Positions 2,213-9,327 of a stretch of DNA of 9,327 nt are shown here, piece after piece. Position numbers and translations under genes: made by a program. The notes beneath the pieces are model-generated. The model did no database searches and had not been told where the DNA came from. It worked only from the letters and a program-made list of their open reading frames with translations. Origin of the DNA: a virus. Taxonomy: Duplodnaviria > Heunggongvirae > Uroviricota > Caudoviricetes. Position 1 is the first letter of the stretch. The number at the start of each line of letters is the position of its first letter. Location: the IMG/VR virus record IMGVR_UViG_2554235297_000005; one strand, written 5' to 3'.

Positions 2213-3589
2213 TCATACGTCCGCCCCTTGTGCATATCGTCTGCCACGCGCAGCAGGTGCATTTGATGCTGTGCAAATCTGTCTGGCTTCATCCTGGTCA
2301 CATGCAACAAAGTGTCCGTTGCAGAACCGCTGGTAAACCGTACCAAGCGAGCCAAAACGGTTTTTCGTCACGATGATTTCAGCAAATGGCGCGGCGCTAC
2401 TGTTCTCGTCATATACCGCTTCCCGATAGAGCATGATGATTGAGTCTGCATCCTGTTCAATGCTTCCTGAATCACGCAAATCTGCGTTTGTCGGGCGTTT
2501 GTTTGGTCGCTTCTCAACATCGCGCGAAAGCTGACTCAGGGAGATAACAGGCGTTTTCAGGTCTTTCGCCATCGCCTTCAGGCTTCCGGAGATGTGAGCA
2601 ATTGCAAGGTCGTTGCGGTCTGCTTTCGGCTTCTCAATCAGGCCAAGATAATCCGCCATGATGAGTGACAGGTTTGGATTTTCCTGTTTGTGCCGTTCTG
2701 CGATTGAGCGTATTTCTTCGACCGATAACCGCGAGGCATCGACTACCCATACATCCAAATCTGCAAGCTGATTCATGCCGTTAGCAACGCGCGCCCAGCC
2801 TTCGTCATCCATCGATGCAGGATTTCGCAGCACGCTAACCGACATCCTCCCGGCGTTGGCAATGCTTCGCTCTGCAATCTGCAATGCGCTCATTTCCATT
2901 GAGAAAATCAATACCCCGCGCCTGACGTCAGAACCAGGAAGAACGCGGCTTGCAACGCCTTCGGCAATCTTTAGCGCCAGTTCGGTTTTCCCCATACCAG
3001 GACGAGCGGCGATTATCACCAGGTCTTCCGCGTTCATCCCTCCGGTGATGGCGTCAAGTTCTTCGATTCCGGTCTTCAGGGTATCTGATTCCTCTCCGTT
3101 CCTCAGACGCCTGTCAAGCGTGTCAGTGTAGTCAGTAATGATTTCCCCTAACCGTACAGGTTTTACCTCGTCACGGGGCTTTCTGATGGCTGAGAGACGC
3201 TTTACAAGTTCATCCATCGCCTGACTCGATGCGTCGATGGTTCCGCTCTGAATTGGTTCACGCATTTCATCCATGATTTCCAGCACCAGACGGCGGTGAT
3301 AGTTATCCGCGACCATTCCGGCATATCCCTTCAGGTTTGCGGCGCTCGGGCAGTTTTTGCTGGTCATCAGGATTGAGGTGAAATGCTCCTCTCCGCACGC
3401 CTCGGCAACCATCAGCGCGTCGATTAGGTTTCTGTTTCTCGCCTGCTTGCGGATAACCTCGAAGGCTTTCCGGTAGAGCGGAATTGAAAACGCTTCCGGC
3501 TCCAGTGTTGCCAGAACGTCGCTGGCGGTTGGAGTTAATCCACCAATCAGCAGGCCACCGATAACACTCGCTTCGATATCCTGTCTCAT
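2213..3589 (-). CDS. DnaB-family replicative DNA helicase (P22 gene 12-like), in the position of lambda P
   Basis: 458 aa ORF with a DnaB-like N-terminus ([12 protein letters not shown]) and Walker A motif [14 protein letters not shown]. Its ATG overlaps the stop of the upstream initiator gene (ATGA at 3586..3589). Confidence 0.9.
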
Positions 3590-4533
3590 GCAATCCCCCT
3601 GTCTGCAAACTTCCCTTCCCGTACTCCCGTTAACGAATCTTCCCTCAGCAGGTAATCAAAATCTGCCGTCCAGCCAGTGTCGTTGTCTCCGAAGTAAAAC
3701 GGCTTGGCCTGATGCACAAACGCCCTGACATACGCTCTGAAACCGTCCACGTTTGGCGTTTTCAGTTGCGGGATGATTTTCTTCAGGCGGCGTTTGCGTT
3801 TCTCGTTGACCGCAACAGCGTGTGGCAGTCTGTCACCGACTTCGGTGTTGTAGGCGTTCAGGAAGGATTCGTAGTCGATTCGTTCTGCCTTGCGACGTTC
3901 AGGTTTAACCTGCCCATCGCCTCCCCCATTGGGGGGTAGGGGGGTATTATTTATATTCTTGTTAATACCTTCTTGTTCATCATGTGCGGTTGTTTGTGCG
4001 GCTTCATGTGCGCTTTCATGTGCGGCATGTGCGCTGAAAGCCGCGCCATTACTGGCTTCGTCATGTGCGGCATCATGTGCGGTTGTTTGTGCGGCTTCAT
4101 GTGCGGGTAAATTGTCCATTTTTTGAGCATATTCATGGTAATTTGTGATGGTGATCACACGACCTTTTTGCTTCTCTCCATCAATGGAGATCATCCCCTC
4201 TTTCACAAAAACCTGAAGCATCCGCTCAACCTGATCACGGCTTGCTGGCTTGCCATGTCTGTCGCATAACTGAAGACCTAAATCAGCTGCTGTCACAACC
4301 AGTTGACCGGGTTGCAGATGCCATTCATGACCTTTGAAATTCGCTTTGTATGGCTTTCTGGCGGCATTCAGGAGAAGGTTTTCCCACAGGGTGCGAAGAT
4401 AAACATCTTTCGCCCATGACTGTTTCAGAATGCTCCGGTACAACGGAATGTAACCAGTTTTCTGGTTCTCCATCCTGTTGCTCCTGCGCTCGTGTGCGGC
4501 GCTGAAATCGTAGATTTTTGCTGTATTGCTCAT
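3586..4533 (-). CDS. Replication initiator, lambda O / P22 gene 18 family (315 aa)
   Basis: N-terminus MSNTAKI resembles the lambda O start. The middle is a low-complexity AH(D/E)AA repeat encoded by DNA iterons, as for ori-lambda lying inside O. Sits immediately upstream of and coupled to the helicase gene. Confidence 0.85.
3944..4106. repeat. Candidate replication origin inside the initiator gene: iteron array plus flanking AT-rich segment
   Basis: Nine copies of the core TGTGCG(G/C) at about 3983, 3995, 4007, 4019, 4029, 4064, 4076, 4088 and 4100, mostly 12 bp apart. Two identical 35-nt blocks (3978..4012 and 4071..4105). AT-rich stretch 3944..3977 lies on the gene-downstream side, and a G-rich quasi-palindrome lies at 3921..3943 (outside this feature's coordinates). 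Confidence 0.7.
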
Positions 4534-5482: not shown

Positions 5483-6280
<798 letters not shown>

Positions 6281-6287
6281 CACGTAA

Positions 6288-6725
6288 ATGATTAAAGAAC
6301 GTATTTCTTATATCATTCCGATTGCGATGGATGAAGGCAACCCAGTAACTCCAGTTCTTATCTATGAAATGGATAAAGACTCCCATGAAGTGGATCTATC
6401 ATTTGGCGCTTTTTTTATCGGCCTTAAGGCTACAAAAAAATATTCCATAGGCATTGAGGTTTTCAATGCTCAAGAAATACCGATACCAATTGACACAAAA
6501 CTGTACTCCAACCATAAGTTTTTTACGGTAGCAGAAGCCAACGATGGAGAAACCATCGTATCAACTTCTATGAGAATTAACTTCCCAAGGGTGAAAATTA
6601 TCAAGCCTGGGATATTCGAAGTTAGAGCATCACTGGTTAATCCTGATAAAGGCGAAGTAATTGATGTAAAAAGTTCGTTTTTTGACGTGAAGATAACAGG
6701 ATCAGTTCGCGATGAGTTTAGATAA
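6288..6725 (+). CDS. Hypothetical protein (145 aa), first gene of the cI-downstream cassette in the rexA position
   Basis: ORF starts 8 nt after the cI stop on the same strand. Visibly AT-rich with different codon usage from cI. No recognisable catalytic motif and no similarity to RexA that I can see. Confidence 0.7.
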   Translation: MIKERISYIIPIAMDEGNPVTPVLIYEMDKDSHEVDLSFGAFFIGLKATKKYSIGIEVFNAQEIPIPIDTKLYSNHKFFTVAEANDGETIVSTSMRINFPRVKIIKPGIFEVRASLVNPDKGEVIDVKSSFFDVKITGSVRDEFR

Positions 6726-7083
6726 CAAGGTTGCTCAGCTTCGTCCAAATCAAAACATATCTCGCCCAATTGGACACTATTCCACTGATGATGCATACTC
6801 ACGGCATGGTGGAGGAAACGGCGGAGGTAACATGCTTGAGGCTAGAGTTGCAAAGCTAGAGTCTGATGTTGAATACATCAAGCGCGATCTCGCTGAAGTA
6901 AAGTCAGATATAAAATCTGTAGATTCTCGTCTGTCAGGTATTGAGACAAGCATTAGCTCAGCAAAAATCACCATCAAGGCATCTGCGGTCGTTGTCAGTT
7001 TCGTGTTCGCATTTTGCGCCTACATTTTTGGAAGTTATGTTTCCAAAATCCTTGATGCCTTAAACGGACTCGTTCTTAAGTAA
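6712..7083 (+). CDS. Small coiled-coil protein with a C-terminal transmembrane segment (123 aa; alternative start at 6832 would give 83 aa), in the rexB position
   Basis: The ATG at 6712 overlaps the end of the upstream ORF. N-terminal 40 aa are low complexity (HGGGNGGGN). Heptad-like segment LEARVAKLESDVEYIKRDLAEVKSDIKSVDSRLSGIE, then hydrophobic AVVVSFVFAFCAYIFGSYV. A GGAGGT precedes the alternative ATG at 6832. Confidence 0.65.
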   Translation: MSLDNKVAQLRPNQNISRPIGHYSTDDAYSRHGGGNGGGNMLEARVAKLESDVEYIKRDLAEVKSDIKSVDSRLSGIETSISSAKITIKASAVVVSFVFAFCAYIFGSYVSKILDALNGLVLK

Positions 7084-7088
7084 CACAC

Positions 7089-7116
7089 AACCCGGCCTCA
7101 GCGCCGGGTTTTCTTT
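7089..7116 (+). terminator. Intrinsic terminator closing the cI-cassette transcript
   Basis: AACCCGGC-CTCAGC-GCCGGGTT hairpin (8 bp stem) followed by TTCTTT, immediately after the stop at 7083. Confidence 0.7.
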
Positions 7117-7271
7117 ACCTCACGATCCCCTTCACCCAATAACACATAACCAATTGTATTTATTTGAAAATTAATAGATACAACTCACTAAACATCGCAA
7201 TTCAGATCTCTCGATCACCTCCCAAGCCACACACCCCTGCAAAAAAATAAATCTATATAAAAAACATACAG

Positions 7272-7344
7272 ATAACCATCTGCGGTGATAAATTATCTCT
7301 GGCGGTGTTGGCATAAATACCACTGGCGGTGATACTAAACACAT
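7272..7344 (+). promoter_or_regulatory. Left operator OL3-OL2-OL1 with PL promoter
   Basis: OL3 AACCATCTGCGGTGATA at 7273..7289, OL2 TATCTCTGGCGGTGTTG at 7294..7310, OL1 TACCACTGGCGGTGATA at 7318..7334. -35 TTGGCA at 7308..7313 and -10 GATACT at 7331..7336 with a 17 bp spacer. Start expected near 7343. Confidence 0.85.
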
Positions 7345-7584: not shown

Positions 7585-7968
7585 ATGACACGCAGAACTC
7601 AGTTCAAAGGCAATTCACGTTCTCGTCGTCGTGAGCGTTTAAAGGCAAAGGCATTAGCTAACGGCGTACTGGCCCGCGAAGAAGCAATAAGTTCAGAAGT
7701 ATTACACCGCCCTACTCTAAGCAGAGCGCAGATTCAGGCTAAAGGTACTCACGAAACGCCTGAGCGCATAGAAGACGCTAAGCCAATTAAGTTCATGGCA
7801 CAGGACGTGATCTGGCAACAGAAAGAATACAGACGCAATCTGGAGCGAGCGGCCATTGTGTACGCGAATGAGTTTGGACATAAGCAACCAGAAACTGGTG
7901 TATGTCTTCCAAACGTAGCCATTTACGCGGCAGGATACCGGAAATCAAAACAACTGACAGCAAGATGA
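7585..7968 (+). CDS. N: N-family transcription antiterminator (127 aa), P22 gene 24-like
   Basis: First gene downstream of PL and nutL with a strong AGGAGG RBS. Arginine-rich motif RRTQFKGNSRSRRRERLKAKA near the N-terminus. C-terminal LPNVAIYAAGYRKSKQLTAR resembles the P22 gp24 C-terminus from memory. Confidence 0.8.
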   Translation: MTRRTQFKGNSRSRRRERLKAKALANGVLAREEAISSEVLHRPTLSRAQIQAKGTHETPERIEDAKPIKFMAQDVIWQQKEYRRNLERAAIVYANEFGHKQPETGVCLPNVAIYAAGYRKSKQLTAR

Positions 7969-8026: not shown

Positions 8027-8497
8027 ATGACAAAATCATGGAGCGTACCTTTTCCTGAATCAGAAACTGAACATGAGGGAATGCCTGTTTTCTGGAGATT
8101 CCAGGCGACAGTTGAAGAAGATGGAATCAAAATATTCGCACTTCAATATATAGCTTTTCATCAGACAGAGCATTATGCATGGTTGGTTCCTGCGCATTGG
8201 ATTGTTAATTTTAAACCAGCACCAAATCAGTGGTTACAGGAATGGAAACAAAGGAGAAATAGATATGCAATTAAGAAAGTAGCAAAAAATGCAGAAAGAT
8301 CTTTTGCATTCCCGACGAAGAAACTTGCCATTGAAAGTTTATTGCGCCGAAAGAAATACCATTTGATGAGAATCAAACAAGATTTGGCTGTTGTATCAAC
8401 TCTTGTTGATGGGATGAAGAATATTGATACATCAACACCAGATATTGAATATAACTTTGGACACAACCAAGAAACAGAAAATTGGGTGTTTTATTAG
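8027..8497 (+). CDS. Hypothetical protein (156 aa), AT-rich cargo gene downstream of N
   Basis: ORF with GAGGTGA upstream of the ATG. AT-rich with a basic central region (RRKKYHLMRIKQ). No recognised family. Confidence 0.6.
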   Translation: MTKSWSVPFPESETEHEGMPVFWRFQATVEEDGIKIFALQYIAFHQTEHYAWLVPAHWIVNFKPAPNQWLQEWKQRRNRYAIKKVAKNAERSFAFPTKKLAIESLLRRKKYHLMRIKQDLAVVSTLVDGMKNIDTSTPDIEYNFGHNQETENWVFY

Positions 8498-8601
8498 TAC
8501 GAATAAGCACTGTGTATTCATTCCAACGAGTGAATACACGGAGCAATGTCGCTCGTAACTAAACAGGAGCCGACTTGTTCTGATTATTGGAAATCTTCTT
8601 T

Positions 8602-8629
8602 GCCCTCTAATGTGAGGGCGATTTTTTTC
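8602..8629 (+). terminator. Intrinsic terminator-like hairpin inside the PL operon
   Basis: GCCCTC-TAATGT-GAGGGC hairpin followed by GATTTTTTT, lying between the two AT-rich ORFs. Confidence 0.55.
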
Positions 8630-8646
8630 TGTGAGGATATGAACAG

Positions 8647-9015
8647 ATGTCAAACATCAAAAAATACATCATTGATTACGACTGGAAAGCATCAATAGAA
8701 ATTGAAATCGACCATGACTTAATGACAGAGGAAAAACTTCACCAGATTAATAATTTCTGGTCAGACTCTGAATACCGACTCAATAAACACGGCTCTGTAT
8801 TAAATGCTGTATTAATCATGCTGGCGCAACATGCTCTGCTTATAGCAATTTCAAGCGACTTAAATGCATATGGTGTTGTGTGTGAGTTCGACTGGAATGA
8901 TGGAAATGGTCAGGAAGGATGGCCTCCAATGGATGGTAGCGAAGGAATAAGAATTACCGATATCGATACATCAGGAATATTTGATTCAGATGATATGACT
9001 ATCAAGGCCGCCTGA
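8647..9015 (+). CDS. Hypothetical acidic protein (122 aa)
   Basis: ORF with GAGGA about 9 nt upstream. Strongly acidic, especially the C-terminal third (DWNDGNGQEGWPPMDGSEGIRITDIDTSGIFDSDDMT). AT-rich. Confidence 0.6.
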   Translation: MSNIKKYIIDYDWKASIEIEIDHDLMTEEKLHQINNFWSDSEYRLNKHGSVLNAVLIMLAQHALLIAISSDLNAYGVVCEFDWNDGNGQEGWPPMDGSEGIRITDIDTSGIFDSDDMTIKAA

Positions 9016-9090
9016 GTGCGGCTTTACCGCATACCAATAACGCTTCACTCGAGGCGTTTTCGTTATGCAATCAAACAGAAGGAGCATCCT

Positions 9091-9261
9091 ATGCAACAGT
9101 TCGCTATTGCAGGGGCGGCATCGGTTCGCCCTTTCAACCCGATTTTATCGGTACAGCATTCACGAAAAAATATTTTAACCGGAGCAGACTTTAAACAACC
9201 AAGAATGAAAAGCTTGCTCGAAAAGCTTTGGGATATTTTGAAACAACAAGGCCGTCCATGA
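9091..9261 (+). CDS. cIII: cIII-like small regulator (56 aa)
   Basis: Internal Met of ORF 9016..9261 with AGGAG 7 nt upstream. MQQFAIAG...SLLEKLWDILKQQGRP resembles lambda CIII (MQYAIAG...LIDILNQPG) from memory, and the position in the PL operon fits. Similarity is partial. Confidence 0.45.
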   Translation: MQQFAIAGAASVRPFNPILSVQHSRKNILTGADFKQPRMKSLLEKLWDILKQQGRP

Positions 9262-9327
9262 GTTTTACAGATAACTGGTCAGACGAAGAATTCATTCGTC
9301 AGATGAAAGAATTAATCGGTAACGAAG
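9258..9327 (+). CDS. Hypothetical protein, N-terminal 23 codons only (runs off the right edge of the window)
   Basis: ATG at 9258 overlaps the cIII-like stop (ATGA). Translation MSFTDNWSDEEFIRQMKELIGNE continues open to the window end. Confidence 0.4.
   Translation, partial: MSFTDNWSDEEFIRQMKELIGNE

Follow-up and report, generated by a model that had tools for sequence, protein, structure and literature searches.

What occupies the place of rexA and rexB between the repressor gene and the leftward operator of a lambda-type prophage, and what might it do in the lysogen? The question is raised by a 9,327-nt stretch of DNA from a virus of the class Caudoviricetes (IMG/VR record IMGVR_UViG_2554235297_000005). 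This whole stretch is called the window here, and all coordinates refer to it. Downstream of the lambda-type cI gene, the window carries two small genes on the cI strand, designated open reading frame (ORF) 1 and ORF2, which encode proteins of 145 and 123 aa. The ORF1-ORF2 cassette is an exact replacement of rexAB between the cI stop codon and the terminator t_imm. Based on position and architecture, the chance that the gene pair is a lysogen-expressed phage-exclusion module is put at about 0.5.

The cI gene (5567-6280, + strand, 237 aa, lambda immunity type) is the first gene of the operon, and is labelled 'LexA family protein' by the Prokaryotic Genome Annotation Pipeline (PGAP). The comparison with blastn showed 98% DNA identity of the cro-OR-cI region to lambda 38255-37231. 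This homology stops at position 6276, 4 nt before the end of the cI coding sequence. It returns, at 88.5% identity, at position 7089, in the final bases of lambda rexB, and extends across the terminator and OL/PL. Therefore, the 812 bp between these points (6277-7088, + strand), which have no lambda homology, exactly substitute for the 1404-bp rexA-rexB segment (lambda 35827-37230). ORF1 (6288-6725, + strand; phrog_5893; WP_000588958.1) and ORF2 (6712-7083, + strand; phrog_6136; WP_000050903.1) overlap by 14 nt. The spacer between cI and ORF1 is 7 nt, and the ORF1 ATG begins at the 8th base past the cI stop. The operon ends at an intrinsic terminator (7089-7118, + strand) composed of a hairpin at 7089-7110 and a T-tract. 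The hairpin has a folding free energy of -14.6 kcal/mol (z -4.7), and none of 200 shuffled sequences folds as well. The alignment with lambda indicated that it is lambda's own terminator downstream of rexB, the equivalent of t_imm, and it is the sole + strand terminator in the region. Promoter-like sites in the region are not above chance (6 against a shuffle expectation of 4.1 +/- 2.1). Two + strand 9-of-12 matches in ORF2, considered as internal promoters, are likewise not above the shuffle expectation and were taken as chance. An antisense ORF of 110 aa (6470-6802) was set aside, as the substitution pattern agrees with the + strand frames.

The downstream boundary of the slot is OL/PL (7274-7336, + strand), which is aligned with lambda and includes OL3 (7274-7290), OL2 (7294-7310), OL1 (7318-7334), and the -35 (TTGGCA, 7308-7313) and -10 (GATACT, 7331-7336) elements of PL. 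The -35 element is TTGACA in lambda, and the bases right after the -10 element (7337-7339) are ACTAAACAC in the window and ACTGAGCAC in lambda. These differences are the grounds on which PL of this prophage may be weaker than that of lambda.

ORF1 and ORF2 are genuine protein-coding genes under purifying selection. They are not chance ORFs, because they show full-length matches to PHROG families, homologues in several enterobacterial genera, and purifying selection. ORF1 matches PHROG 5893 with an E value of 8.5e-65 (residues 1-140 on positions 1-140 of 140 in the profile), and ORF2 matches PHROG 6136 with an E value of 3.6e-46 (residues 1-123 on positions 1-120 of 120). Both PHROGs are annotated as 'unknown function'. 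In the codon-level comparison, the ratio of nonsynonymous to synonymous substitution rates (dN/dS) is 0.08-0.27 in ORF1 and, over the first 40 codons of ORF2, 0.14-0.36. Homologues are observed in Escherichia, Salmonella, Edwardsiella, Dryocola, Enterobacter, Klebsiella, Citrobacter, Yersinia, and others. Neither protein reaches the threshold for any family in Pfam, NCBIfam, or PADLOC.

The AlphaFold2 model of ORF1 shows eight strands in a beta-sandwich (mean predicted local distance difference test (pLDDT) score 89.9; predicted template modelling score 0.85), and ORF1 is confidently predicted to be an all-beta sandwich. No hydrophobic or transmembrane-like segment is found by hydropathy. The structure-based search with Foldseek against PDB returned weak matches (TM-score ~0.5) to RhoGDI, MD-1/MD-2, and GH2 domains; the matches are just of the generic immunoglobulin-like, carbohydrate-binding-module, RhoGDI, or MD-2-like kind. 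The top matches among viral models are uncharacterised standalone phage proteins of similar size. The ORF1 family profile found 61 proteins at E <= 0.001 among 1.84 billion representative proteins, nearly all of which are standalone proteins of 130-150 aa. ORF1 has the appearance of a small binding module of the cytoplasm rather than of an enzyme. A link to the PBSX protein XepA and to YomS was examined because the top viral fold matches included a Firmicute phage protein and because of the gene order in PBSX. It was rejected: there is no specific sequence or fold similarity to 6i56, 6ia5, or 6i5o, XepA and YomS are absent among the sequence and structure matches of ORF1, and only an architectural analogy is left.

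ORF2 is divided into three parts. In the AlphaFold2 model, residues 1-39 are disordered and residues 40-121 form one helix. The N-tail (residues 1-40; 6712-6831, + strand), which has low pLDDT and no secondary structure, ends in a GGGNGGG run; it co-segregates with the ORF1 type in the mosaic analysis described below. The following heptad helix (residues 41-87; 6832-6972, + strand) contains MLEARVAKLESDVEYIKRD, the most conserved part of the family, and shows one dominant heptad register with hydrophobic residues at 14 of 16 a/d positions. The third part is a C-terminal transmembrane segment (residues ~88-110; 6973-7041, + strand) with a Kyte-Doolittle value over 19 residues (KD19) of 2.1, followed by 13 residues. 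It is the sole hydrophobic segment of the 123 residues, and hydropathy alone indicated no N-terminal signal or transmembrane segment. Because there is no N-terminal signal, and the heptad helix is followed by a C-terminal hydrophobic segment, ORF2 is predicted to be anchored in the inner membrane by its C-terminal tail, with most of the protein in the cytoplasm. Of 55 unique relatives, 54 have a comparable segment at a distance of 1-17 residues from the C-terminus, and the exception is cut by a contig end.

The relatives of ORF2 are often named 'hemolysin XhlA' by NCBI, a label with no above-threshold model match for ORF2. Its score against the Pfam family XhlA (PF10779) is 19.3 bits, below the gathering threshold of 34.7. 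Among 27 family members, 16 match XhlA at E <= 0.01 (best E 8.3e-6), all sub-threshold. The search of PDB with the ORF2 family profile returned just generic coiled coils such as Lpp, GCN4, sigma-1, and gp26.

A candidate internal start is present at the junction of the N-tail and the helix (6823-6834, + strand). The glycine codons of the GGGNGGG run form GGAGG (6823-6827), 4 nt ahead of the in-frame ATG of Met41 (6832-6834), from which an 83-aa isoform could be translated. A Met right after the glycine run is kept in 52 of 54 unique ORF2-like proteins, and a Shine-Dalgarno core (GGAG, GAGG, or AGGA) lies 3-16 nt upstream of it in 39 of these 52, although these counts are not phylogenetically independent. 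This pattern suggests a possible second isoform of ORF2 that lacks the N-tail and consists of the coiled coil and the anchor.

Much of the above had been proposed in an earlier note made from the letters of the window alone. Its description of lambda-like cI, OR, and OL, of an interval without RexA and RexB, of two ORFs on the cI strand followed by an intrinsic terminator ahead of OL/PL, of a soluble first protein, and of a second protein with a heptad-like helix and a single C-terminal hydrophobic segment agrees with the results. The abrupt drop in GC content that it placed at the cI stop is clear in ORF1 (37.2%) but only mild in ORF2 (42.7%), with 45.5% in cI and 46.4% in the window. To call the cassette unrecognised was an overstatement, given the epsilon34 genes for gp45/gp44 reported in 2008, the PHROG entries, and the loose XhlA label of NCBI. 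Its functional proposal, exclusion or abortive infection with the first protein as a possible sensor and the second as a membrane-disrupting effector, is an inference from position and architecture. Profile searches and structure prediction, which the note had suggested as a check, placed neither protein in a characterised family; they gave the PHROG matches and the sandwich model of ORF1.

The distribution of the pair was analysed in 143 loci, which include annotated records, encoding contigs, one species-representative genome, and 133 IMG/VR loci. The scan of species-representative genome contigs gave a single locus, in Dryocola. Every ORF2-like gene for which upstream sequence is available has an abutting or overlapping upstream partner on the same strand. 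Most partners in the 64 unique pairs are 110-190 aa long, and the gap ranges from -56 to +6 nt, except in one pair with a split gene. The iterated profile assigned 48 of 55 unique partners to one ORF1 family. The profile is specific: it matches 131 of the 9936 ORFs in the loci, and 130 of the matches are the designated partners. Even partners barely linked to ORF1 by BLAST (31% identity, pairwise E 1e-6) belong to this family. Fused ORF1-ORF2 proteins, an idea taken from the 276-residue phrog_3556, were not found among the 9936 ORFs.

The remaining seven unique partners are not ORF1-like and are found in loci L089-L094, L114-L117, L130, and L110. Six of them, 110-132 aa long, have a CxxC..CxxC motif; three of these were scanned and matched no Pfam family. 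The motif is absent from the seventh (L110, 90 aa). In L089-L094 and L130, the non-ORF1 partner occupies the same slot downstream of the repressor gene.

In 128 of 141 locus rows, the gene that directly precedes the pair encodes a CI/LexA-type repressor. At least 18 repressor types with less than 60% identity to one another are represented, and HTH_3 and/or Peptidase_S24 of Pfam were confirmed on six representatives. Examples with other repressors include Salmonella phage epsilon34 (gp46) and Enterobacter prophages. Because the pair recurs behind many repressor types, it is a portable component of repressor operons that is not bound to any one immunity specificity. In L108 and L110, the gene upstream of the pair encodes not a CI-type repressor but an 80-aa protein starting with MARNDPQFNVRMPDEIKQQL, which by eye looks like a ribbon-helix-helix (Arc/Mnt-like) protein.

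A hairpin with a T-run ends 36 of 62 unique pairs, ~10 nt or less from the stop codon in all but two cases. It is often t_imm-like, with a ACCCGGCC...GCCGGGT stem that shows compensatory changes, and the terminator seems to be a conserved boundary of the module. The t_imm-like hairpin is also observed after differing cassette variants in many loci (L016-L142), with the stem variants ACCCAGCC/GCTGGGT and ACCCGACC/GTCGGGT.

Within ORF2, the parts do not share one history. The mean pairwise identity is 0.59 in the centre (the GGGNGGG run and the conserved block after it), 0.33 in the N-tail, and 0.39 in the C-terminal part. Among comparisons with a partner identity of 60% or more, N-tail identity also reaches 60% in 152 and falls below 35% in none, and the converse is equally clean. 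Partner identity shows no such relation with the C-terminal part of ORF2 (Spearman 0.004): similar partners are combined with unrelated tails in 74 comparisons, and unrelated partners with similar tails in 334. The last 35 residues of ORF2-like proteins form eight unrelated types, each with a strongly hydrophobic character (KD17 1.97-2.56). Some E. coli and E. marmotae loci combine a near-identical ORF1 (dN 0.003) with an unrelated ORF2 tail, indicating recent recombination inside ORF2. These combinations are seen in locus L026 and in H45 and H46 (E. coli EPSSH018 and LR-60), where ORF2 has an unrelated 107-aa tail of the E. marmotae type. Thus, the exchange units are ORF1 together with the ORF2 N-tail on one side and the ORF2 membrane tail on the other, joined at the conserved centre. 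This pattern would fit docking of ORF1 on the N-tail of ORF2, but linkage alone would produce it as well. In comparisons of 6727-6831 with L002, L051, and L063, the N-tail shows a dS of 0.25-0.35, over a small sample of ~35 codons, and the adjoining ORF1 a dS of ~1.5. The low value in the N-tail suggests nucleotide-level constraint or recent recombination at the junction.

The earlier note had also suggested that the cassette was acquired as a unit. This claim needs refining because the module boundary falls inside ORF2. Its other suggestion, that the interval is a variable hotspot, agrees with both the genomes and the literature. The 3' half of this cI is present in 1212 of 5426 complete E. 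coli genomes, and the whole cassette in 14. Six sampled prophages with the same cI have six differing contents between cI and OL: a P63C-domain protein in one; single hypothetical genes of 127, 173, and 345 aa in three; a 185-aa hypothetical gene with a DUF1828 protein in one; and a pair of 88 and 216 aa in one. The cI-N interval has been described as a mosaicism hotspot housing rexAB and bstA, and the cI promoter drives bstA transcription in each of the 17 conditions tested (PMC7067206, PMC8585504).

What, then, may the pair do? It would constitute the distal part of an operon PRM/PRE-cI-ORF1-ORF2-t_imm, and as the distal genes of a repressor operon both genes would therefore be made in the lysogen, like rexAB and the bstA of BTP1 in the same slot. 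The C-terminal helix of ORF2 would lie in the inner membrane, with the disordered N-tail and the coiled coil facing the cytoplasm, and ORF2 would oligomerise via the coiled coil. ORF1 would be a cytoplasmic binder of the beta-sandwich type, most likely docked on the N-tail, where it may hold ORF2 or act as a sensor. An infection cue would alter the interaction between ORF1 and ORF2. The oligomerised ORF2 helices would then act on the membrane as a holin or XhlA might, by damaging or gating it, and the superinfecting phage would be aborted. The slot position, the conserved synteny, the hotspot, the C-terminal transmembrane segment kept across eight tail types, and the recurrent sub-threshold XhlA match suggest such exclusion, as does the patchy distribution of the cassette among E. 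coli genomes relative to this cI. The tracking of ORF1 with the N-tail, the exchanged membrane tails, and the CxxC..CxxC partners that substitute for ORF1 indicate an arms-race-like modularity.

Several points weigh against an exclusion function. The position in the slot is not proof of defence, and morons there could have other roles. The membrane-disrupting role of ORF2 is read from its architecture and a sub-threshold XhlA match, and XhlA is no commoner among the matches than the generic coiled-coil family FlaC_arch, which matches 19 of the 27 ORF2 members. The fold of ORF1 is generic and offers no hint of sensing. The co-segregation of ORF1 and the N-tail could be explained by physical linkage with recombination in the conserved centre. 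PADLOC-DB v2 gave no significant match for either protein: there were zero matches for ORF1, and for ORF2 just a CorA-like (E 0.0039) and an LmuB (E 0.034) match, both on the coiled coil. The supplementary lists of DefensePredictor do not include the accessions of either protein. Neither accession was found cited in the literature, and a literature search by accession, locus tag, and keyword did not find a functional study of the gene pair.

The same position and synteny would also suit superinfection exclusion at the envelope, in which ORF2, assisted by ORF1, would prevent DNA entry or obstruct an inner-membrane receptor used by incoming phages and leave the cell unharmed. P22 SieA, T4 Imm, HK97 gp15, and DicB are the systems for comparison. 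ORF2 is a small single-pass inner-membrane protein by prediction, and its swapped membrane tails could suit different membrane targets. Entry blocks usually act in the periplasm, however, and ORF2 is predicted to be mostly cytoplasmic with ~13 residues past the transmembrane segment, leaving little of it there; an obligatory cytoplasmic partner is also atypical of entry blockers. This explanation is considered unlikely. We give a similarly low standing to lysogenic conversion unrelated to phages, in which the pair would alter host membrane physiology, stress tolerance, or the interaction with the host animal, as bor and lom of lambda do. Expression in the lysogen is expected from the position, the genes occur in pathogens (enteropathogenic E. 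coli (EPEC) E2348/69 and Salmonella), and the sandwich of ORF1 weakly resembles the lipid-binding cups of RhoGDI and MD-1/MD-2. On the other hand, the module keeps to the repressor slot across many phage backgrounds and several genera and does not follow particular pathotypes, and rapid domain swapping is more typical of conflict systems. Neither protein has an export signal, and neither is therefore expected at the cell surface.

A role in the life cycle of the phage itself, as a lysis accessory related to XepA/XhlA or as a modulator of induction or lysogeny maintenance, appears still less probable. RexB has been reported to influence proteolysis, and the relatives of ORF2 are recurrently weak matches to XhlA. 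In PBSX, the beta-sandwich protein XepA is encoded near lytic genes, and XhlA is essential for lysis (PMC6834076). The least probable explanation is an addiction pair resembling a toxin-antitoxin system, with ORF2 as a small membrane toxin and ORF1 as its neutraliser: a small membrane protein and a soluble partner encoded by overlapping, probably translationally coupled genes would suit it, but scans of Pfam, PADLOC, and NCBIfam found no similarity to known toxin-antitoxin families, ORF1 is a well-folded beta-sandwich with no obvious lability, and the idea overlaps mechanistically with the abortive-infection model.

The proposed exclusion function can be extended, tentatively, to the family as a whole. 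It is conceivable, if rather doubtful, that these loci represent an unnamed modular family of repressor-linked abortive-infection systems. Its core would be an XhlA-like tail-anchored coiled-coil effector. The cytoplasmic partner, a beta-sandwich or a CxxC..CxxC protein with its matching N-tail on the effector, and the membrane tail would be swapped independently. The isoform starting at Met41, which would lack the N-tail, would give a two-isoform switch of the holin/antiholin kind.

The cI-N interval in lambdoid prophages is an established site of lysogen-expressed exclusion genes, and most of its contents are unannotated. A specialist would expect uncharacterised cargo in the slot; the pair is nonetheless a clean and testable candidate, compact and well delimited, and present in the EPEC reference strain and in Salmonella P22-like phages. 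The PHROG and RefSeq entries are already known, and the rexAB-like position was remarked in 2008 (PMC2629481). New here are the exact replacement of rexAB in a prophage of lambda immunity, the breadth of the repressor-linked family, the fold assignments, the module boundary inside ORF2, the alternative types of partners and tails, and the candidate internal start. If the pair is protective, it would add a new protein family to prophage-encoded immunity and offer a simple model of a soluble partner controlling a tail-anchored membrane effector. Its mosaic would then show diversification through exchange of the sensor part and the membrane part at a conserved joint. Should the pair turn out to have no role in defence, it would still be an abundant lysogen-expressed membrane module in pathogens.

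Some features outside the slot were also observed. The window is 99.9% identical to a prophage of EPEC E2348/69 (NC_011601.1) as far as position 8497. The match ends there, and 8498-9327 are covered by two other O127:H6 assemblies, in separate pieces. The interval 8100-8850 is very AT-rich (GC content 0.35-0.37), with uncharacterised ORFs of 156 and 122 aa, and may be another accessory-gene region downstream of N. A 127-aa ORF (7585-7968) occupies the position of N, after PL and a long leader. It is not annotated as a complete gene in NC_011601.1, where PGAP has just a 69-nt 'regulator, incomplete' at its 3' end. The replication-protein ORF (3586-4533, - strand) holds a repetitive AHDAAHDE stretch, whose coding DNA probably represents iteron or origin repeats within an O-like gene.

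Among known systems, RexA/RexB of lambda are encoded in exactly this slot of the cI operon, after cI and ahead of the same terminator. They are likewise two genes for one soluble and one membrane protein, and expression in the lysogen is expected for both pairs. The proteins themselves are different. BLASTP between ORF1 and lambda RexA gave 11.9 bits (E = 10), which is no homology, and between ORF2 and RexB 20.8 bits (27% over 49 residues, pairwise E 0.004), for which homology was not accepted. RexA is a protein of 279 aa, unlike the 145-aa beta-sandwich of ORF1. RexB is a four-helix polytopic membrane protein. It has 144 aa, in contrast to the single C-terminal anchor and the long cytoplasmic coiled coil of ORF2, and the cassette is shorter than rexAB (812 bp versus 1404 bp).

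XhlA proteins are defined by a small size, a helical N-terminal part, and a C-terminal membrane segment. ORF2 shares these three features. It differs in its location in an immunity operon, whereas XhlA is encoded in a lysis cassette next to the holin and endolysin. In the E2348/69 prophage, the genes for the holin and the glycoside hydrolase family 24 endolysin (L001 1-413) lie ~8.6 kb from the cassette, on the opposite strand. The combination of a beta-sandwich protein encoded near a small protein described as a holin is seen in XepA and XhlA of PBSX; XepA is cytotoxic, is encoded near xhlA-xhlB-xlyA, and has been proposed to collapse the proton motive force (PMC6834076).

BstA of Salmonella phage BTP1 shares the repressor-downstream slot and the cI promoter, and its abortive infection is proven (PMC8585504, PMC7067206). 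Unlike the pair, it is a single unrelated protein, which localises at sites of phage DNA replication (PMC8585504). No homology of BstA to ORF1 or ORF2 was detected in any search.

The genes 44 and 45 of Salmonella phage epsilon34 were described in 2008 as seemingly in the repressor operon 'like rexA and rexB', with zero database matches (PMC2629481). The product of gene 45 is a homologue of ORF1 with 74% identity, and true homologues are also present in g341c and NM-3. The product of gene 44 resembles ORF2 over its first ~45 residues and has the glycine run in common with it. Epsilon34 differs in its repressor and immunity type, and the membrane tail of gp44 is unrelated and shorter, but its genes 45 and 44, like the cassette, are located directly after the repressor gene and ahead of OL/PL.

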